Source: an uncultured Gammaproteobacteria bacterium (GTDB lineage: Bacteria > Patescibacteriota > Microgenomatia > Daviesbacterales > UBA10151). Taken from it: DNA of 59,291 nt. Positions within the stretch are counted from its first letter, which is position 1, and each line of letters begins with the position of its first letter. The position numbers and the translations under genes were made by a program. Under the pieces are notes generated by a model. It was given only the letters and a program-made list of their open reading frames with translations. It ran no database searches and was not told where the DNA came from. Below are positions 2,965 to 55,507 of this stretch, one piece after another. The stretch is taken from NCBI GenBank assembly GCA_964524895.1, contig CAZGFG010000004.1:20469-79759 (forward strand), read 5' to 3'.

Positions 2965-4118
2965 AGAAAATTCATCGAGCTACTTTAAAGTTCCTAACAC
3001 CTTTAACACCGGACGAAACTTATACAATTGTTGGTCAGGAAGCTCAAAAACTTGTTGGGGGGGAGCATAGTACTATTTATCTTCTCGAAGATAGAGAATT
3101 GGTAAGAGCTTATTCTTCGCTTCCGTCTTTATTTAGAATTTCCGGCAAGGAGAGAGACATTAGATATGATGTAATCAAAAATAAAAAACCTGCAATTTTA
3201 AGCTTGAGTTTTATGAAAAAGCTAAAAAAGAAGTATCCATTTATGGGAAAGGTATATAATCGCTCGGCTCTGATGATACCACTTTCTTATAAACATGAAA
3301 CAATAGGATTGCTCTCTGTCCTAGCCTTAAAAAATACTGACTTTACTGAAGACAAATTGGAAATCTTAACATTATTCGGATCTTTAGCTAGCTTAGCAAT
3401 AAAAAAAAACCAACTCTATGATGAGACGAAAAAGGCTTTAGAGGTACGTGACCTATTTATAGCCATGGCTGCTCATGAGTTGAGGACTCCGCTTACATCA
3501 GTGAACGGTTACATCCAACTTTTATACTCCAAGCTTTCCGGAGCTGAAACCCCTGAATCAAGGTGGATTGAACAACTTTATTGGGAAGGTAACAGATTGA
3601 CAAACTTAGTAAATGAACTATTGGAGATGAATAGAATCAAATCAGGAAAACTTTCTTATTACTTGAGGGAGTGTAGCTTACGGGAAATTTTTTCTCGATT
3701 GGAAAAGAATTTTCTAATGCTCCACCCGGACCGTAAATTAATAATACAAGATGAAATAGGTAAAAGTTCGGATATTGTAATAGGGGATTATGAAAAAATC
3801 ACTCAGGTCTTCTCAAATCTTATTGATAATGCTGCAAAATTTTCTCCCGAGCATAGCCCTGTAAAAGTAATAATAAAACAAGATGATAATGATTTTATAA
3901 TCCGAATTGTTGACCAAGGAAAAGGGATACCCCAAAAAGATATTAATAAGGTCTTTCAAGGTTTTTACAGAGGTAAAGAGCAGACTGAAGAAGGTATGGG
4001 AATGGGCTTATTTTTAGTAAAAGATATAGTTAGTCGATTACATGGTAATATCAGAATAGAATCGAAACTAGGTGGCGGAACTGTTGTAGAGGTAAAATTA
4101 CCCAAGCAAAACTTATAA
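2949..4118 (+). CDS. GAF-domain sensor histidine kinase (cytoplasmic)
   Basis: AAHELRTPLT H-box, NLIDNAAKFS N-box, DQGKGI, GMGMGL G-boxes. Confidence 0.95.
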   Translation: MESILEKIHRATLKFLTPLTPDETYTIVGQEAQKLVGGEHSTIYLLEDRELVRAYSSLPSLFRISGKERDIRYDVIKNKKPAILSLSFMKKLKKKYPFMGKVYNRSALMIPLSYKHETIGLLSVLALKNTDFTEDKLEILTLFGSLASLAIKKNQLYDETKKALEVRDLFIAMAAHELRTPLTSVNGYIQLLYSKLSGAETPESRWIEQLYWEGNRLTNLVNELLEMNRIKSGKLSYYLRECSLREIFSRLEKNFLMLHPDRKLIIQDEIGKSSDIVIGDYEKITQVFSNLIDNAAKFSPEHSPVKVIIKQDDNDFIIRIVDQGKGIPQKDINKVFQGFYRGKEQTEEGMGMGLFLVKDIVSRLHGNIRIESKLGGGTVVEVKLPKQNL

Positions 4119-4138
4119 GTGGAAAAAAATTTTGATTT

Positions 4139-4810
4139 CTACTCCTTTATCATATACCCAAAGCCTCGGACAGAGTGAAGAAGCTTTTTAGGGGCATTTC
4201 CGTCAACCTTTTTCCTCAAATACCCCATATAAACATCCACCACCCGAGTTTCAATATCCTGGGAATATAACCAAACCCTATTCAATATCATCTCCCGAGT
4301 TAGTATTCTACCTTTATTATTCATCAAATACTGCAACAATTTAAATTCTTGAGGAGTAAGCTGGATCAGTTTTGTTCCTCTTTTAACCTCCAAAGTTTTA
4401 TCATTTAACTCCAAATCCCCAACTTTTAACATAGCTTCCCCGTTCATCCCCTCCCGCAGCCTGGTTTTAATCCTTGCAAGCAGCACATCTGCTACAAAAG
4501 GCTTGGTTATATAGTCATCCGCCCCCAAATTAAGCCCTTGGACAATATCGGAAACACTATCCTTGGCAGTCAAAATTATGACCGGTAGGTCAGGGTATTT
4601 TTTCCGGATCTCCATGCAAACCGATTCACCACTCATATTTGGTAACCCCAGGTCTAAAAGCACCAAGTCTGGGAGCATTTTTTCCAATGATCCTAGCGCA
4701 ATGATTCCGTCCCCGGCTGTTTGGCTAACATAGCCATTGTCCATTAACAGCTCCTTTAAGTACTTTTGGAGCCCATGGTCATCTTCCACAATCAAGATTG
4801 ATTTTGCCAT
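4139..4810 (-). CDS. OmpR/PhoB family response regulator
   Basis: IVEDD, LLDLGLP, DDYITKPF, C-terminal SVRGFGY. Confidence 0.95.
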   Translation of the reverse strand: MAKSILIVEDDHGLQKYLKELLMDNGYVSQTAGDGIIALGSLEKMLPDLVLLDLGLPNMSGESVCMEIRKKYPDLPVIILTAKDSVSDIVQGLNLGADDYITKPFVADVLLARIKTRLREGMNGEAMLKVGDLELNDKTLEVKRGTKLIQLTPQEFKLLQYLMNNKGRILTREMILNRVWLYSQDIETRVVDVYMGYLRKKVDGNAPKKLLHSVRGFGYMIKE

Positions 4811-13281: not shown

Positions 13282-14154
13282 TTATAACTCTTCTAATTTG
13301 ATCTTGCCTTCGCCGGCTTGGCCTTGCAAAAATTGCAGATATCTTTCAGTAGTTGATAACCTCTTATGCCCTGCCAATTTGGAAACTACTAGTAGGGAAG
13401 TACCGGATTGAAGTTGGTGGGCCACCCAGGTATGGCGCAAATCATTAACCTTGGCCCCTTTAATACCGGCAATTCTGAAATATCTGTCAATGGCAGTCCG
13501 GATATTTCTGATAAGAAGTGGTTTGCCGGTTTTGGTAATAAACAATGAATGGGATTGGGTTTTTGGCCTAATCTCCAAATATTTACCTACAGCTTCTGCT
13601 GCAGGTTTATTTAGAGGAATTATCCTTTCGTTGGCACCTTCAAAAGGGGGAACATGCAAAGTTGCAGATTCTGTTAGGTTAACATCTTCCACTCTAAGTT
13701 TGGAAAGCTCTCCAATCCTGATACCGGTTTGCAAAAGCAGCTCTATAACAGCCAACATCCTGATATCTGCTCTGGCAGCGTCTCTTAATGCCCGATATTC
13801 AAGCTTTGAGAGGATCCTGGGGGGTTTATTTTCAAATTTAGGGTGTTCTAAACCGGTGGCCGGGTCCTCATTGGTTATACCTGAAGATTTTAAGAATTTG
13901 AAAAAGGTTTTAGTAGAATTGGTTTTACGGGAGATGGATTTTGGGGTGTAGTTTTCTTTGGCTAGTTTGTCCATAAAAGCCTGCAGATCCTCGGTAGTAA
14001 CCTGATTTGGTTCGTTCTTTCCCAACCCCTCTAAGAACTTAACAAGTTGATCGATGTCCTTCCCGTAGGCTAAAATAGTAGCGGATGCGCGTGACCTACC
14101 TTTTAAATGTCCTATAAATTGCTGATGTGCATCTTTCAAAGATATCATTGGCAT
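13282..14154 (-). CDS. XerC/XerD-like tyrosine recombinase
   Basis: N-terminal SAM-like domain, TGIRIGE, DLRHTW, LAGH...TTERY; promoter TTGACA-N17-TACAAT just upstream. Confidence 0.92.
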   Translation of the reverse strand: MPMISLKDAHQQFIGHLKGRSRASATILAYGKDIDQLVKFLEGLGKNEPNQVTTEDLQAFMDKLAKENYTPKSISRKTNSTKTFFKFLKSSGITNEDPATGLEHPKFENKPPRILSKLEYRALRDAARADIRMLAVIELLLQTGIRIGELSKLRVEDVNLTESATLHVPPFEGANERIIPLNKPAAEAVGKYLEIRPKTQSHSLFITKTGKPLLIRNIRTAIDRYFRIAGIKGAKVNDLRHTWVAHQLQSGTSLLVVSKLAGHKRLSTTERYLQFLQGQAGEGKIKLEEL

Positions 14155-34965: not shown

Positions 34966-35787
34966 ATGAAAACACTTGTTACACATATTAACCCGCATTT
35001 GGATGATATTGCAGCTATCTGGCTGTTTAAAAAGTTTCATCCGGACTTTGCCGATGCCAAAATAGAATTTATCTCCGCTTCGCAAGGCAACAAACCAATA
35101 GAGAAGAGTGAGGAGAAAGTATTTTTGGGGGTAGGAAGGGGAAAATTTGATGAGCACAAAGGAGATTTGGAAGATTGTGCCGCTTCTTTGGTGTGGAAAA
35201 ATCTTAAAGGAGAAGGTTTAACCCCAAAAGATGAAGCGGAAGCTAATGCTTTAACAGAATTGGTGGAGTGGGTAAGGCTGGGGGATCTGGGAAGATTGCC
35301 TATTGAGAAGTTTGATGACTTTACTGTCCCCTCTTTTATCCGGGTTTTTGGTAGTGAGCAAGCCGCTACTTCATTGGAAAATACGGATTTGGGTCTTAAG
35401 ATTTTAGACCGGATTTACAGAGGTTTAATAAACAAACATAAAGCAGAGAAGGATTGGGAGGTAAGAGTGGAGTTTGAAACTAAATGGGGAAAGGGAGTGG
35501 CTGTAAAATCTGCCTTTGTAAACAGAGGTTTTTGTAAAAATAAAGGTGTGGATATTTGTTTAATGGTTGATCCCAGGTACGGTTCCGTCCAATTTTTTAC
35601 ACCTAAACCTAAAAATGAAGGTGATTTAGAGCCTATTTATAGGAAAGTGAAAGAATTAGACCCGCAAGCTACCTGGTTTTTGCACCAGTCTCACCATATG
35701 GTAATTTGTGGTTCGGGTTCTGCCCCTGATTCTAAAAGAACCAAATTGTCTTTTGATCAGCTTATAGAGGTTGCCAAAAATCCTTGA
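34966..35787 (+). CDS. DHH/MYG1-like phosphoesterase-fold protein
   Basis: VTHINPHLDD, GRGKFDEH, WFLHQSHHM. Confidence 0.55.
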   Translation: MKTLVTHINPHLDDIAAIWLFKKFHPDFADAKIEFISASQGNKPIEKSEEKVFLGVGRGKFDEHKGDLEDCAASLVWKNLKGEGLTPKDEAEANALTELVEWVRLGDLGRLPIEKFDDFTVPSFIRVFGSEQAATSLENTDLGLKILDRIYRGLINKHKAEKDWEVRVEFETKWGKGVAVKSAFVNRGFCKNKGVDICLMVDPRYGSVQFFTPKPKNEGDLEPIYRKVKELDPQATWFLHQSHHMVICGSGSAPDSKRTKLSFDQLIEVAKNP

Positions 35788-36496
35788 GACTAAATTGAAC
35801 AAATCTCATCAAGAGCTTTTAATTCGGATTCAAGAGTCGTCCGGGGTTAACAAACGGACTTGGGGTGCCGGTTACCTAGGCAGTAATCACTTGTATTACT
35901 CACTTTCTTCTCCGCTGAGACGGCAGTTGGCAAAAGATTGGGCCCGTCAGTACAAAAACATCACGGCCGTAGAGTTTTTGTCAGTGCTCGATGACCTTTT
36001 TAAGGGAAAATCTTATGAAGAGAAAACTATTGCTCCCAGACTTTTGGAATATTTGCCAAAGCAGAGGTTTCTGATTGAACCTGCAAAAATAGATCTATGG
36101 TTGGATGATTTGCAGGGATGGGCAGAGGTAGACTCACTTTGCCAAGGTATCTTTAGTGATAAAGAGTTGTTAGGCAACTGGAAGAAGTGGGAATTACTTC
36201 TTAAGAAACTAAATGAATCTGATGAGGTGAGTAAAAGAAGAGCTTCTTTGGTGCTTTTGACAGGCCCGCTGTCGCATTCAGATGATCCAAGAATGGCTGA
36301 TTTGGCTTTTGCAAACATTAACAACTTGAAAGAGGAAAAAGATATTTTAATCACCAAAGCTATCTCCTGGCTTTTAAGAAGCCTTATTAAAAATCACCGG
36401 AGTAGGGTGGAGGAATATTTAAGAAAAAATCAAGATACTTTGCCTAAAATTGCTGTGCGTGAGGTGAGACGCAAACTTCTTACCGGGCGGAAATAA
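35771..36496 (+). CDS. DNA alkylation repair protein (AlkD-like)
   Basis: WAEVDSLC, RRASLV, KAISWLLR, AVREV. Confidence 0.85.
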   Translation: MPKILETKLNKSHQELLIRIQESSGVNKRTWGAGYLGSNHLYYSLSSPLRRQLAKDWARQYKNITAVEFLSVLDDLFKGKSYEEKTIAPRLLEYLPKQRFLIEPAKIDLWLDDLQGWAEVDSLCQGIFSDKELLGNWKKWELLLKKLNESDEVSKRRASLVLLTGPLSHSDDPRMADLAFANINNLKEEKDILITKAISWLLRSLIKNHRSRVEEYLRKNQDTLPKIAVREVRRKLLTGRK

Positions 36497-50861: not shown

Positions 50862-52136
50862 ATGGCGTATGTAGCGGATCTTCATATCCATTCCCGGTTT
50901 TCCAGGGCTTGTTCACCCCAACTTACCATTCCCAATTTGGCAGAGGCTGCCAAACTAAAAGGAATAAAGCTTTTAGGTACAGCCGACTTTTTACATCCTC
51001 TTTGGTACTCGGAGTTAAAGCGTGATTTAAAAGAGGAGGGGAATGGGTTATTTGCTCATAACGGAATCAAATTTATCCTTTCCACAGAAGTTTCTTTAAT
51101 ATATTCGCATAATGGCAAAGGCCGGAGGATTCATCTTTTAGTGATGCTTCCTTCTTTTGAGTCGGCAGAAAAACTGCAGCATCAGTTGTATCAAAGACAG
51201 GCCAAACTTTCTTCCGACGGCAGGCCTATCCTTGGTATGTCAACCCAAGCTTTTTGCGAGATAGTCTTCAACATTGAGTCTAAAGCTATCTTGATTCCGG
51301 CTCATATATGGACGCCTTGGTTTGGCATGTTTGGCTCACAGTCAGGTTATGATTCTTTTAATGAATGCTTCGGTCCCTTTTCAGAAAATATTTATGCTAT
51401 TGAAACGGGGATGTCTTCTGACCCGGCGATGAACTGGCGGGTTGGGCAACTGGATTCAAAGTCGATTGTTTCTTTTTCAGACCCGCATTCTTTGCCAAAA
51501 ATGGGTAGGGAAGCAACAATCTTTGCTGGAGAATTAAGTTACCCGGGTCTCTTAAGTGACTTAAAGGAGCAGGGAATTGAGGGTACAATTGAGTTTTACC
51601 CGGAGGAGGGAAAATACCATTTTGACGGTCACAGAAATTGCCAATTTTCCCAACCGCCCCAACAAACCAGGAAAGCGGGTACTGTTTGCCCCAAATGCGG
51701 GCGGGATCTAACAGTGGGAGTTATGTACCAGGTAGATAAATTAGCAACCAGGGACAGTCAGGAGCTAGGAATTAAGAGTCAAGAAGGCTGGGTGATTAGT
51801 GAGACTTTAAATAGGCCAAAATACAGAATGTTGGTGCCGCTGATGGAAATAATAGCAGAAGCGTTTAATGTTGGTGTAGCAAGCCAAAAGGTAGATTCTG
51901 AATACAAAAAACTCATAACCTCTTTGGGAGATGAAATCTCTATTTTGACGCAAATAAATATAGAAGAAATAGCCAAAACCGGTGGTGCAAAAATAGCGGA
52001 GGGAATAAGTAAAGTCAGAAGCGGGGATTTAGTTATAGAACCTGGTTATGATGGAGTATACGGGGTAGTTAAAATTTGGAATGAAGAGGAAGACAATGGT
52101 CAGGAATCTGTTCCACAGCTTGGGTTATTTGATTAA
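50862..52136 (+). CDS. endonuclease Q family protein (PHP domain plus Zn finger)
   Basis: DLHIHSRFSRA, IPAHIWTPW, IETGMSSD, SFSDPHS, GKYHFDGH, CPKCG. Confidence 0.9.
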   Translation: MAYVADLHIHSRFSRACSPQLTIPNLAEAAKLKGIKLLGTADFLHPLWYSELKRDLKEEGNGLFAHNGIKFILSTEVSLIYSHNGKGRRIHLLVMLPSFESAEKLQHQLYQRQAKLSSDGRPILGMSTQAFCEIVFNIESKAILIPAHIWTPWFGMFGSQSGYDSFNECFGPFSENIYAIETGMSSDPAMNWRVGQLDSKSIVSFSDPHSLPKMGREATIFAGELSYPGLLSDLKEQGIEGTIEFYPEEGKYHFDGHRNCQFSQPPQQTRKAGTVCPKCGRDLTVGVMYQVDKLATRDSQELGIKSQEGWVISETLNRPKYRMLVPLMEIIAEAFNVGVASQKVDSEYKKLITSLGDEISILTQINIEEIAKTGGAKIAEGISKVRSGDLVIEPGYDGVYGVVKIWNEEEDNGQESVPQLGLFD

Positions 52137-52205: not shown

Positions 52206-52805
52206 ATGAAGATTCTAGTTGGTTTGGGTAATCCGGAGGAAAAATATAGTGGTACAAGGCATAATTTGGGCTTTGAGGTAGTGGATGAATTTAGAAGGAA
52301 ACTCAATTTGGGAGATTGGGGATATGAGAGACAATTTAAGTCAGAAACTTTAAAATTTAGCTATAGCCTAAGCCCTAAACCCTTAACCCTAATTTTAGTT
52401 AAACCTCGAACCTATATGAACCTTTCTGGTTTAGCTGTAGTTTCTTTAGTCCGTTTCTACAGAGTTGCTCCGGAGGATATCATTATTGTGCATGATGAGT
52501 TGGACCTACCTTTGGGGAAAATTAAGGTTCGTCTTGGCGGAGCAGCAGCTGGACATCATGGGGTAGAGTCTGTGATAAATGAATTGGGGAGTGATCAATT
52601 TATTAGGGTGAGGCTGGGGATAGGAAATTTAAAATCCCACAGCGGGGAGCATAAAAGGATCTCCTTCTCTGCTGAAAAATTTGTACTGGAGCCTTTTTTG
52701 CAAAGTGAGCATTCGGAAGTTAAACATATGGTTAAGAAAGCGCTGGGGGCAATCGAGTTAATTTTGGATAAGGGTTTGGAAACTGCCAAAAACCAATTTA
52801 ATTAG
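52206..52805 (+). CDS. pth: peptidyl-tRNA hydrolase
   Basis: VGLGNP..Y..TRHNLGF, TYMNLSG, HDELD, GHHG. Confidence 0.96.
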   Translation: MKILVGLGNPEEKYSGTRHNLGFEVVDEFRRKLNLGDWGYERQFKSETLKFSYSLSPKPLTLILVKPRTYMNLSGLAVVSLVRFYRVAPEDIIIVHDELDLPLGKIKVRLGGAAAGHHGVESVINELGSDQFIRVRLGIGNLKSHSGEHKRISFSAEKFVLEPFLQSEHSEVKHMVKKALGAIELILDKGLETAKNQFN

Positions 52806-52854
52806 ATAAATTTGGGGTTGACAGCTTCTTTCTTTTTCACTAAACTGATCTAAC

Positions 52855-53598
52855 ATGGAAAAGACAAACTCCTTTTTAACAATCCCGGTGGCTATCCTTA
52901 TAGGTTCGGTAGTTATTGGTTTATCACTTATGATTAGCAGCGGAGTGATTAAACTAGGCAGCGCCGGTTCTTACCAGGCTCCAGCTCCTACCGCTCCAAC
53001 CGGGCAGGCTCCAAGCGGCCAAGCTGTAGCCAAAACCGAAGCGGATATTATTAAAGGCTTAAAAGATTTAGCTAAAAATTTGGGATTGGACCAGAATAAG
53101 TTCAGCAGCTGTCTAGATTCAGGATCAAAAGCGGATTTGGTAAAAGCCGATTTGGACGAGGGGAGCAAAGTTGGAGTAAATGGTACTCCGGGCTTTTTTG
53201 TCAATGGCCGGACTTTAAGCGGTGCCCAACCCTATGCCCAGTTTAAAACTATCATAGATGAAGAGCTTTCAGGGAGTGCTCCGGCAAACACTCAACGCCA
53301 AAATGTCCCGGTCGGCAATTTACCGGTTTTGGGAAATCCTAATGCTCCTGTAACCATCATTGAATTTTCCGATTACCAATGTCCGTTCTGTGAAGCTTTT
53401 TTCACCCAGACCGAACCTCAAATTAAAAAAGACTATATAGATTCGGGCAAAGTGAAGTTTTATTATCGGGATTATCCTCTTTCCCAAATTCATCCTGGTG
53501 CTCAAAAAGCTGCAGAAGCGGCAAGGTGTGCCGGGGACCAAAACAAATATTGGCAATATCATGATTCGGTCTTCCAAAACCAAAAGACTCTCTTCTAA
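52855..53598 (+). CDS. membrane-anchored DsbA/BdbD-family oxidoreductase, circularly permuted
   Basis: GVNGTPGFFVNG segment precedes EFSDYQCPFC segment. Confidence 0.85.
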   Translation: MEKTNSFLTIPVAILIGSVVIGLSLMISSGVIKLGSAGSYQAPAPTAPTGQAPSGQAVAKTEADIIKGLKDLAKNLGLDQNKFSSCLDSGSKADLVKADLDEGSKVGVNGTPGFFVNGRTLSGAQPYAQFKTIIDEELSGSAPANTQRQNVPVGNLPVLGNPNAPVTIIEFSDYQCPFCEAFFTQTEPQIKKDYIDSGKVKFYYRDYPLSQIHPGAQKAAEAARCAGDQNKYWQYHDSVFQNQKTLF

Positions 53599-53601
53599 CC
53601 T

Positions 53602-54018
53602 TCATCGGCAATTATGGCAAACTCCGAAGAACTCTAAAGAGTGGCCGATCGGTTTAAAGTCCAATTTTTTCATAATCTGCATCTCTTTCATATCCAGATC
53701 TTTTTCCATGGGTATATCAACTACTTTTTGACAGTTGATGCAGATGATGTGGTGATGATGGCTACCTGCTATTTCATACCGCTTCCTGCCTTCTCCAAAA
53801 TCAACTTCCTGTAGAATCTTCTGTCCTTGTAGAAAATCTACCTCTCTGTAAACAGTACTTTTATTTGGTTCCAATCCCTTCTTGGATAAAATTTTAAGCA
53901 GGTCGGTTGTAGAGAGCGGAGAGTCGGCGTTAAATAAAATTTCCACCAAAGCCTGCCTGATTTTTGTACTTTTGTGCCCTCTCAACTTTAAGTTTTCCAT
54001 AATTTTTTTGTTATCCAT
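53602..54018 (-). CDS. Fur family regulator (Zur-like)
   Basis: STVYR, HHHHIICINC, GVCHNC; start probably MDNKK at 54018. Confidence 0.9.
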   Translation of the reverse strand: MDNKKIMENLKLRGHKSTKIRQALVEILFNADSPLSTTDLLKILSKKGLEPNKSTVYREVDFLQGQKILQEVDFGEGRKRYEIAGSHHHHIICINCQKVVDIPMEKDLDMKEMQIMKKLDFKPIGHSLEFFGVCHNCR

Positions 54019-54045
54019 AATCCCGATACAATTATAGCATCTATA

Positions 54046-54073
54046 CATTTATATTACGACCGTGATATAAATG
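54046..54073. repeat. 28-bp palindromic site 1 (CATTTATATTA-CGACCG-TGATATAAATG)
   Basis: 11-6-11 inverted symmetry; overlaps the start of the PaaX-like gene. Confidence 0.75.
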
Positions 54074-54601
54074 AAGGGAATGAAAACTAGAGGGGCAATC
54101 AGTACCAAGAAAAACCTTACCAATTTTATTTTGCTGGCTTTGGAGAAGACGGTTGATGGGTATGTAAGGCTAGAAGACTTTGCTTATAACCCTGGATATT
54201 ATGCTTATGGAGATGGTTGGGATTTCCCTTTAAAGAAGGCCTCCTTATCTCAAGCTTTAAAAAGGCTAAGAGAAAATGGGCTGGTGGATCTTGTAGATAA
54301 TGAAAAGTTGATTTTGAGGCTAACTGATCGTGGCAGAGAAAAAGCAGTTTTGGCAAAGATTAAATTTGACAGTCAAAAGTGGGATGGTAAATGGAGGTTG
54401 GTAATATTTGATATTCCAGAGAAAAAACGATCGGTGAGGGATCTTTTAAGGTCCAAACTCAAACAGTGGGATTTTGTATATTTGCAGCAAAGTGTCTGGG
54501 TTTCCAAGAAGGATTGTACTGAAGTTTTAAGAAACTTTATCAAAAGTGTGGGAATAGAGGATTGGGTAATGGTTATTGAATCCGACAACACTGGCCTTTG
54601 A
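54071..54601 (+). CDS. PaaX-like protein (wHTH plus Cas2/VapD-like ferredoxin fold)
   Basis: LTDRG, WDGKWRLVIFDIPEKKR..RD.LR..L, LQQSVW. Confidence 0.85.
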   Translation: MKGMKTRGAISTKKNLTNFILLALEKTVDGYVRLEDFAYNPGYYAYGDGWDFPLKKASLSQALKRLRENGLVDLVDNEKLILRLTDRGREKAVLAKIKFDSQKWDGKWRLVIFDIPEKKRSVRDLLRSKLKQWDFVYLQQSVWVSKKDCTEVLRNFIKSVGIEDWVMVIESDNTGL

Positions 54602-54603
54602 TG

Positions 54604-54631
54604 CATTTATGCTACGGTCGTATGATAAATG
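54604..54631. repeat. 28-bp palindromic site 2 (CATTTATGCTA-CGGTCG-TATGATAAATG)
   Basis: same arms as site 1 with the central hexamer reverse-complemented; starts 3 bp after the stop. Confidence 0.75.
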
Positions 54632-54665
54632 AAAATAGTTAAGATGAAAATGTTTGTCCCTTGAC

Positions 54666-54684
54666 AATGCAACCTAGTTGCGTT
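54666..54684. promoter_or_regulatory. candidate Zur/Fur operator AATGCAAC-N3-GTTGCGTT
   Basis: 8-3-8 palindrome between TTGACA (54661) and the -10 of the ZIP gene. Confidence 0.55.
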
Positions 54685-54697
54685 TTAATACCAGGTA

Positions 54698-55447
54698 ATG
54701 GGGACATTGTTTTATATTCTGTTATTTTCCTTTATCGGATCGGTAGTATCACTGGTTGGAGGAGTTTTATTGTTATTTAGGGAAAAATTGGCCCTTAAAA
54801 TCTCCCATTATTTGTCCTCTTTTGCAGCCGGGACATTGCTGGGAACCGCTTTTTTTGACCTGTTACCGGAGGCTGCAGATCAAGCTAAAGGGGAAGCTGT
54901 TTTTCAATGGACACTAGCAGGTTTGTTAATCTTTTTTCTGCTTGAGAGGTTTATCCATCATCACCACGACAGCCCCAAAGAAGATGCGGTGGTGCCCTTG
55001 ATTGTGATTGGTGATAGTATCCATAATTTTATTGACGGTGTGGCTATGGCAGCTACTTTCTTGGTATCAATTCCCTTGGGGATTGTAACTTCTTTGGCTG
55101 TGGCTGCCCATGAAATTCCCCAGGAGATAGGAGACTTTGGCTTAATGCTGCATAAAGGTGTTGCCAGGAAGCGGGTATTGTTAATTAACTTTTTGAGTGC
55201 CTTGGCTGCAATGGCCGGAGCTATATTAACCTATCTGGAGAAGGATAGGATAGAAGGGTTATTACCGGCAGTTTTAGGCCTAACTGCAGGATTTTTTATC
55301 TATATTGCAGCTTCCAACTTAATTCCGGAGATTCATAATAGGGAAAACCAGCAAATGGCTTTTTGGGAGACAGTTGTGCTTCTTTTGGGAGTATTGGTAA
55401 TCTTTATTGCTATCTCTACCCTGGAGACTTTGGCCTTACCACATTAA
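54698..55447 (+). CDS. ZIP family metal transporter (ZupT-like)
   Basis: FAAGTLLG..FFDLLPE, HHHH loop, DSIHNFIDG, HEIPQEIGDF. Confidence 0.94.
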   Translation: MGTLFYILLFSFIGSVVSLVGGVLLLFREKLALKISHYLSSFAAGTLLGTAFFDLLPEAADQAKGEAVFQWTLAGLLIFFLLERFIHHHHDSPKEDAVVPLIVIGDSIHNFIDGVAMAATFLVSIPLGIVTSLAVAAHEIPQEIGDFGLMLHKGVARKRVLLINFLSALAAMAGAILTYLEKDRIEGLLPAVLGLTAGFFIYIAASNLIPEIHNRENQQMAFWETVVLLLGVLVIFIAISTLETLALPH

Positions 55448-55507
55448 ATAAAGTTGTGGGAATACGCTTGTTTTTGAGACTAACTTATTATACAATCCTT
55501 CAAATCT

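Follow-up and report, generated by a model that had tools for sequence, protein, structure and literature searches.

The window analysed here is a stretch of 59,291 nucleotides from an uncultured bacterium of the Daviesbacterales (assembly GCA_964524895.1, contig CAZGFG010000004.1). Near its right-hand end lies a small gene whose product resembles the repressor PaaX but lacks the C-terminal domain of that protein, and the gene is enclosed by two palindromic sites of 28 bp, S1 upstream and S2 downstream. We refer to the gene as mini-PaaX, and to the gene together with its two sites as the module. An earlier note on this DNA had pointed to the two matching palindromes around the PaaX-like gene, and our analysis confirms that they are real and lie where the note had placed them (Table 1). 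They are also a unique pair: with up to 3 mismatches allowed, the shared pattern CATTTATNNNACGNNCGTNNNATAAATG is matched in the 59-kb window by S1 and S2 alone, and it occurred 0 times in 100 dinucleotide-preserving shuffles.

The start of mini-PaaX was placed at 54080 on the basis of the database gene call (P0001, 100% identity, 173 aa) and the N-termini of all homologs. The Cas2-like PaaX_M domain (Pfam PF20803) scores 86.5 bits against a cut-off of 24 over residues 102–174, and the chain stops at residue 173 with no Pfam match to PaaX_C. In the AlphaFold2 model (predicted local distance difference test score 77), an N-terminal winged helix is followed by a C-terminal ferredoxin-like domain with the Cas2-like beta-alpha-beta-beta-alpha-beta fold. 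Among PDB structures compared by Foldseek, E. coli PaaX (8A39, E = 1.7e-5) matches the whole chain best, ahead of 3KFW (Rv0674) and 3L09; the alignments to PaaX structures extend over 160–174 columns, and their TM-scores of 0.38–0.43 are low because the target is longer. Taken singly, the domains match PadR/MarR winged helices and Cas2. The protein has the fold of neither a recombinase nor a transposase, the best structural match being a repressor. The PaaX equivalog model TIGR02277 gives 33.5 bits against a cut-off of 264.55 and is matched at positions 36–144 of 279 only.

The Cas2 model TIGR01573 scores 19.4 bits, below its cut-off of 24.5, and the Cas2-like domain is fused to a winged helix-turn-helix (wHTH). 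We considered a stand-alone CRISPR Cas2, which has about 90–100 aa, and rejected it on the low score, the wHTH fusion, the lack of a Cas1 neighbour and the fact that the 28-bp repeats form a single pair; cas1 was found neither among the ten neighbour families identified in loci L001–L044 nor among the genes that flank the module in the window. The aspartate at the Cas2-type catalytic position (FDIPE) is invariant in the family alignment. Three members of the family (P0087, P0105, and P0112) carry the NCBI name "CRISPR-associated endonuclease Cas2" although they too have sub-cut-off Cas2 scores and the wHTH fusion, and such labels on short wHTH–PaaX_M proteins are likely to be annotation errors. 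The wider family of these short proteins forms 2902 clusters (E <= 1e-10, 50% identity); within it, the narrow subfamily of this study accounts for 27 clusters at E <= 1e-30.

The geometry of the sites differs in some respects from the first description. Both sites can be parsed as 11-6-11, as the earlier note had it, but the palindromy continues through the supposed core and a 13-2-13 parse fits better, with matching arms at 12/13 positions in S1 and 11/13 in S2. The note had further described the central hexamers as reverse complements. Since the CGNNCG core is itself palindromic, this observation reduces to the central dinucleotide, which is indeed AC in one site and GT in the other. The same AC/GT pair is found in the orthologous loci L001, L052, and L055, but the pair is GT/GT in L002, L054, and L056, AC/AC in L053, and GC/GC in L051, and inverted cores are thus not a conserved property of this ortholog group. 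S1 was said to overlap the start of the gene; it does cover the first in-frame ATG (54071), but the likely start codon lies 6 nt beyond its end. The gap between the TGA stop codon (54599–54601) and S2 is 2 nt rather than the 3 bp given before. A third match to the generic form of the site, CA-N9-CG-NN-CG-N9-TG, lies at 35953–35980 of the window (CAAAAACATCACGGCCGTAGAGTTTTTG, 10/13 palindromic) inside an open reading frame (ORF) of 241 aa (35771–36496); about 1.4 generic matches are expected in the window by chance, so this one is probably coincidental.

By protein-profile search we assembled a family set of 124 loci from Daviesbacteria/Microgenomates, 44 of them from species-representative genomes and 80 from metagenomes; positional statistics refer to 83 non-redundant family loci. 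When two-sided sites were sought on the flanks of these homologs, the bracket was found to be a signature of the whole family. Upstream of the gene, a site was found in 44/44 loci from genomes and in 73/77 from metagenomes, about 95% overall. The downstream site is present in 40/44 and 57/75, respectively, being missing in ~20% of loci. As to position, the upstream site ends 4–5 nt before the start codon in 58/83 loci, and the downstream site begins 0–3 nt past the stop codon in 48/83 and no more than 12 nt past it in 77/83. S1 is kept in all the orthologs of the window gene that we compared (L001, L002, and L051–L056).

The genes around the module are far less constant than the bracket. The fur and zip neighbours seen in the window are retained in the closest orthologs only, and elsewhere the family is found beside DprA, PepN (aminopeptidase N), DnaB, a Mur ligase, a penicillin-binding protein (PBP)/FtsI-like protein, EF-P, or an O-antigen-ligase-like protein. 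The paa catabolic genes are not among the module neighbours, which are fur and zip in the window and housekeeping genes elsewhere. Within each orthologous subgroup, the genomic position is kept across species, and the paralogs are 50–70% identical to one another. The flanks of the module, in contrast, differ among close relatives. The family is a paralogous expansion in which each copy, set between housekeeping genes, has its own variant of the predicted operator. At least five paralogs are present in one metagenome-assembled genome (MAG), CAZYPW01 (L001, L006, L023, L029, and L033), each with its own site variant, and at least three in the complete 820-kb chromosome CP066688.1 (L009, L020, and L031). 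In L044, two copies lie 3 kb apart (1007–1501 and 4001–4495).

Alignment of the sites reveals a fixed scaffold with variable arms. The invariant or near-invariant positions are C1, A2, C12, G13, C16, G17, T27, and G28, of which C12, G13, C16, and G17 are invariant in 40 tabulated site pairs. The centre is always purine–pyrimidine (R-Y; AT, GC, AC or GT), and CG-RY-CG is the best-conserved portion of the site. Positions 3–11 and 19–26 vary, and they differ between paralogs even within one genome.

The upstream site is at the same time part of a promoter. We defined the −35 hexamer as the four bases preceding the site plus its first two bases; this hexamer matches TTGACA at 5 or more of 6 positions in 61/83 upstream sites, as against 16/83 downstream sites. 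The right arm of the upstream site reads TGnTAnnnT, an extended −10 element in which T21 and A22 are strongly enriched, and TG occurs at site positions 18–19 in 49/83 upstream versus 23/83 downstream sites. In the window, both elements can be recognized at S1, the −35-like one in a weaker form (Table 1). The upstream site thus occupies the spacer between the −35 and −10 elements from which the gene itself would be transcribed, and this is where a repressor operator classically lies. As the start codon follows the −10 hexamer by 7–8 nt, the mRNA should have no leader, and we regard the mini-PaaX transcript as probably leaderless.

The two sites of a module resemble each other in a particular orientation. 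Mean identity of paired sites is 22.3/28 when they are compared directly and 18.4/28 when one of them is inverted; direct identity exceeds inverted identity in 30/41 loci, and the reverse holds in 3, including the window, where the call is weak because the two sites are nearly symmetric. In L016, L036, L106, and L127 the two sites, although not perfect palindromes, agree at 28/28 positions as direct copies. The sites also change together. In 28 phylogenetically independent ortholog pairs, positions at which both sites differ between the orthologs showed 31 parallel and 6 antiparallel changes (p = 4e-5), with the strongest co-evolution at the central dinucleotide (9 parallel, 0 antiparallel). 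Mutual information between protein residues and site positions is highest at the N-terminal residues 8 and 12, but this measure is confounded by phylogeny and was not used.

We favour, with moderate confidence, the reading that the unit at 54042–54631 is a self-contained autoregulatory cassette, consisting of a mini-PaaX repressor and its two cognate predicted operators. The site sequence is specific to each module and the paired sites co-evolve; the sole module-specific factor is the encoded protein, which argues that the sites are operators of that protein. Of the two suggestions in the earlier note, it is the one of two operators for the encoded wHTH protein that the comparison backs: the bracket is present family-wide whatever the neighbours, its sequence tracks the paralog, and S1 lies inside a promoter, and the PaaX-like fold of the product agrees with this. 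DNA binding by the mini-PaaX protein is itself suggested by fold and context. In the mechanism we propose, the protein would dimerise via its Cas2-like domain and bind S1 and S2, and a dimer on S1 would block RNA polymerase, giving negative autoregulation as for PaaX at the Px promoter. The weakest step is that the same protein would bind S2 as an auxiliary operator. From there it could cooperate with S1 by looping out the ~540-bp gene, or it could stand as a roadblock and thereby curb transcription that would otherwise run on into the next gene.

The closest known system is PaaX itself (E. coli and Pseudomonas; structures 8A39, 3L09, and 3KFW), a repressor that responds to phenylacetyl-CoA and that shares the N-terminal winged helix and the Cas2-like dimerisation domain. 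The operator of PaaX is TGATTC-N27-GAATCA, and PaaX represses its own promoter by exclusion of RNA polymerase (PMC9493321). Long palindromic operators and autorepression are thus features of PaaX whose mini-PaaX equivalents are predicted. The differences are substantial: PaaX has ~300 aa and a helical, acyl-CoA-binding C-terminal domain, whereas mini-PaaX has ~170 aa and lacks that domain, and the mini-PaaX genes have no paa neighbours, a 28-bp predicted operator of the form CA-N9-CG-RY-CG-N9-TG, a predicted leaderless promoter, a multi-paralog expansion in Microgenomates, and two predicted operators per gene. Literature searches on PaaX-like proteins and on PaaX, Cas2, and Patescibacteria turned up no published description of the bracketed mini-PaaX architecture. 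While PaaX repressors are known, truncated and expanded PaaX-type proteins that each appear to be repressors bracketed by two operators would be new.

The neighbours in the window suggest a different owner of the sites. With a Fur-family regulator gene on one side of the module and a ZIP transporter gene on the other, Zur boxes are the obvious rival: S1 lies in the divergent region between zur and mini-PaaX, S2 lies upstream of zip, and Fur-family proteins bind AT-rich palindromes. On this account, S1 and S2 would be operators by which the adjacent Fur-family regulator controls zur and the transporter. However, the same kind of 28-bp bracket flanks paralogs that have no fur or zip nearby, and fur orthologs in loci lacking the PaaX-like gene have no 28-bp site; a scan with the generic pattern found none in L045 and L046, where fur is present and the PaaX-like gene is not. 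In addition, a different palindrome accompanies the zinc genes. The loci L001, L002, L045–L050, L052, and L053, some of which lack a PaaX-like gene, carry a 17-bp palindrome, ATGCAAC-N3-GTTGCAT, ahead of zip, znuA, and fur; in the window, L001, L002, L045, and L046 it adjoins the TTGACA −35 element that serves zip. In the window this box, ATGCAACCTAGTTGCGT at 54667–54683, constitutes the spacer of the zip promoter. In relatives, fur orthologs adjoin znuABC, yibE_F or zip with no PaaX-like gene present. The 17-bp palindrome is very likely, judging from its distribution, the Zur box of the Daviesbacteria clade. Comparison of fur loci with and without the module thus refutes the identification of S1 and S2 as Zur boxes, an explanation to which we give almost no credence. 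Both kinds of site are AT-rich palindromes near zur and zinc-transporter genes in the window, but the 28-bp sites track the PaaX-like gene and the 17-bp box tracks Fur. S1 also spans the −35 zone of zur; the module and zinc regulation may therefore influence each other, though nothing in the operator reading requires it.

Table 1. Features of the mini-PaaX module and its surroundings, in window coordinates; copies of the 17-bp palindrome are given by locus.
Feature	Position	Strand	Description
−35-like hexamer TATACA	54042–54047	+	4/6 match to TTGACA; overlaps first two S1 bases (CA)
S1, upstream 28-bp palindrome	54046–54073	.	CATTTATATTACGACCGTGATATAAATG; proposed operator; within promoter of PaaX-like gene
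Extended −10 box TGaTATAAA	54063–54071	+	In right arm of S1
mini-PaaX gene	54080–54601	+	173 aa; winged helix and Cas2-like PaaX_M; no PaaX C-terminal domain
S2, downstream 28-bp palindrome	54604–54631	.	CATTTATGCTACGGTCGTATGATAAATG; proposed second (auxiliary) operator
Fur-family regulator gene (Zur-type by context)	53602–54018	-	138 aa; Pfam FUR 7e-24; neighbour, divergent from module
zur promoter, extended −10 box TGCTATAAT	54031–54039	-	7 nt from S1; ~12 nt before ATG (54018)
zip promoter	54661–54689	+	Neighbour; −35 TTGACA (54661), 17-nt spacer, −10 TTTAAT (54684)
ZIP zinc transporter gene	54698–55447	+	Downstream neighbour; Pfam Zip 6e-40; weak NCBIfam ZupT match
17-bp box copies	L001:776; L002:4617; L045:1828; L046:1500/2730/4867/4891; L047:659
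17-bp box copies	L049:484; L050:271/2911/2935; L052:3686; L053:2858

A second alternative is that the sites are partners in site-specific recombination or transposition. Here S1 and S2 would be acted on by the host Xer recombinase or by the encoded protein as a wHTH–Cas2-like nuclease, and the unit would excise, integrate or invert in the manner of a pdif module or an integron cassette. Nucleotide similarity between the window and relatives with other flanks spans 54040–54635, exactly from the −35 box to S2, as expected of a cassette. Close relatives keep the S1–gene–S2 unit intact in altered surroundings: in L052 it is on the opposite flank of fur, in L053 it is parted from zip by a 2',5'-RNA-ligase gene, and in L051 neither neighbour is the same. 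The co-evolution of paired sites in direct register, with its 9:0 count at the centre, is what matching crossover regions would produce. The loci with 28/28 identical direct repeats, the placement of modules between housekeeping genes (ftsI-like/murE-like, dnaB/pepN), and the invariant Cas2-type aspartate, in a cassette with its own nuclease, fit as well.

Other observations speak against such movement. The encoded protein has no recombinase or transposase fold. There are 0 solo or empty sites in 504 kb of loci, 0 inversions in 8 close relatives, 0 family members on viral contigs, and no near-identical copies at different places. A search of metagenome contigs for the excised-junction allele (zur-side flank, any site, zip-side flank) returned 0 matches, a negative that is weak because the clade is poorly represented in those contigs. 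With centre pairs mixed among orthologs as described above, the outcome would flip between inversion and excision. Since modules within the same genome do not share their arms, no one host Xer could serve every one of them. Although the flanks of the module differ among close relatives, no inversion, empty site or junction allele was seen in the loci examined, and the 50–70% identity of paralogs at conserved positions implies that any mobility is ancient or rare. Taken as a whole, we regard recombination or transposition at S1 and S2 as unlikely. A mechanism in which the cassette encodes its own mobility is likewise unlikely, as is its most specific form, a minimal one-gene mobile cassette (−35 box, S1, gene, S2) whose protein would cut or join DNA at CG-RY-CG through the Cas2-type acidic site. 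That form would explain why the boundaries fall at the sites, why the centres change in concert, and why the flanks differ.

The resemblance to dif sites had led the earlier note to propose a pdif-like or Xer-like mobile or invertible module, and this proposal is for the most part not supported. In dif, it is the central 6 bp that vary, whereas the arms, read by one XerC/XerD pair, are conserved (PMC6449649). The mini-PaaX sites are the reverse, with CG-RY-CG most conserved and arms that vary from module to module. What they have in common with the dif/pdif modules of Acinetobacter plasmids is a 28-bp length open to an 11-6-11 parse, inner arms that are palindromic, the enclosure of one gene, and varied flanks. 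Unlike pdif modules, however, they lie on chromosomes between housekeeping genes and are stably inherited, their sites are mostly direct (30 versus 3 loci), the upstream site forms part of the gene's own promoter, and no junction or solo sites, inversion or excision were found in the loci examined. The Xer-like gene to which the note had drawn attention (13282–14154) does encode an Xer-family tyrosine recombinase, of generic type, ~40 kb from the module.

Mobile elements of other kinds offer a partial parallel. Some insertion sequences (IS) carry the transposase promoter in a terminal inverted repeat, and in REPtrons a REP-associated tyrosine transposase (RAYT) gene is flanked by repetitive extragenic palindromic (REP) palindromes. 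The likeness lies in a gene between short repeats that are read by its own product (a prediction here), a promoter in the left repeat, and the possibility of autoregulation. The mini-PaaX module differs in having no DDE or HUH fold, no dispersed copies of the repeat (504 kb of loci), paralogs that are old and position-conserved, and repeats that are each palindromic but paired directly.

The gene order near the module turns over fast in L051–L053 relative to window positions 52800–55500 (PaaX-like identity 73–81%): fur occurs on either side of the module, and DUF3105, 2',5'-RNA ligase, and small unknown ORFs come and go. The PaaX-like gene is better conserved than the genes beside it: between L002 and the window, the identity is 78% for the PaaX-like protein, 49% for Fur, and 33% for ZIP.

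The downstream site invites two further explanations. The first takes S2 as a decaying copy of the S1 promoter-operator, of no specific use to the encoded protein and maintained by occasional gene conversion or as a weak outward promoter for the next gene. The repeat often exceeds 28 bp: shared on the left is a TNGA that forms a −35 box and, in the downstream copy, makes use of the stop codon, and shared on the right are 3–6 nt. Good −35 and −10 boxes survive in some downstream sites, among them the 16/83 with near-consensus TTGACA and S2 of the window (TTGATG-17-TATGAT), and the absence of the site from a minority of loci also fits decay. On the other hand, the downstream site remains within 12 nt of the stop codon in almost all of the loci, across paralogs that are 50–70% identical, and retention of this kind argues for selection; it is kept even beside a convergent next gene. 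Within ortholog groups, moreover, the right arm of the upstream site differs stably from that of the downstream site (GAT versus ATG at positions 19–21 in the window's group), which speaks against frequent conversion of whole sites. The decaying copy, too, seems to us an improbable account.

The second explanation places the function in the transcript, where the palindromes would form hairpins, a 5' structure and a 3' terminator, stabiliser or processing site, perhaps cut or bound by the Cas2-like domain. S2 would lie in the 3' untranslated region right after the stop codon, no canonical terminator was found near it in the window, and relatives of Cas2 and VapD can be RNases. However, only ~72% of arm positions form Watson–Crick pairs, many of the mismatches are not wobble pairs, and there is no preference for G-U over A-C once the TG of the −10 element is set aside. 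No U-tract follows the downstream sites, and the upstream site, which precedes the predicted transcription start, is as palindromic as the downstream one. The palindromes have no Rfam match. We therefore rate a role as RNA elements as very unlikely.

Several observations sit uneasily with the autoregulatory cassette that we favour. A symmetric dimer leaves unexplained the direct-register identity of non-palindromic positions, including the central dinucleotide, and the invariant Cas2-type aspartate means that the protein may have nuclease activity. The downstream site is kept although the next gene is convergent in ~9/44 loci, where it has no obvious regulatory logic. Activation might show as a fixed spacing from the downstream site to a downstream promoter, and looping as inter-site distances in phase with the DNA helix; we looked for both and found neither. 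The conserved block of DNA described above ends exactly at the sites while the flanks vary, which is cassette-like. Finally, a search for further cognate sites, allowing up to 7 mismatches, covered 504 kb of loci (+/-4 kb per gene) and the window and found none besides those at the genes themselves; the protein would therefore regulate little beyond itself and its immediate neighbours.

Repressor genes between their own operators are familiar from phage lambda, where cI lies between OL and OR, and from lac with O1 and O2, where the repressor gene or operon start is set between cognate operators that loop. The mini-PaaX module resembles these in having a gene between two sites (predicted operators), one of which overlaps a promoter that is, or here would be, autoregulated; the spacing in such systems ranges from a few hundred bp up to a few kb. 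It differs in that each site is a single 28-bp palindrome, the second abuts the stop codon, and there is no phasing signal.

One subgroup of the family lies upstream of dprA (L024 and L033). In this subgroup the downstream site extends up to or into the start codon of dprA, and the L033 site has at its right end an ATG with which dprA itself appears to begin; because of this overlap, occupancy of the downstream site could directly affect dprA expression. As to the zinc genes, the extended −10 box of the zur promoter has counterparts in L001 (TGGTATAAT) and L002 (TGTTATAAT). The fur (zur) leader would be very short or absent, and leaderless or near-leaderless starts may be common in the Daviesbacteria organism of the window. 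Farther upstream, an MJ0043_C-domain protein encoded upstream of pth has 424 aa in the window (50862–52136); at L047 (4654–4818) the MJ0043_C-domain protein has 828 aa with a weak intein-splicing match, and it may carry an intein insertion. Many MAGs deposited as third party annotation (TPA) with "binchicken" or "_co" names (L001–L044) are titled "uncultured Gammaproteobacteria bacterium" while holding a Daviesbacteria-type gene and synteny, and the title is probably generic or wrong.

If the sites should prove to be recombination ends, they would define a new kind of mobile element tied to the Cas2 fold, and if the protein were to cut or join DNA at the site centre, it would represent a previously unknown Cas2-related class of site-specific mobility enzyme. 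As a by-product, the comparison yields the likely Zur box of the Daviesbacteria clade. Gene regulation in the Candidate Phyla Radiation (CPR)/Patescibacteria is almost uncharted, and proteins of ~170 aa such as these are usually called hypothetical or mislabelled as Cas2. Under the autoregulatory reading the family gains a testable function, since an operator, a promoter, and a leaderless start can be predicted for every one of its proteins. The dozens of predicted protein/operator pairs, built on the common scaffold with variable arms, would form a natural specificity series, which could yield a recognition code or orthogonal repressor/operator parts.

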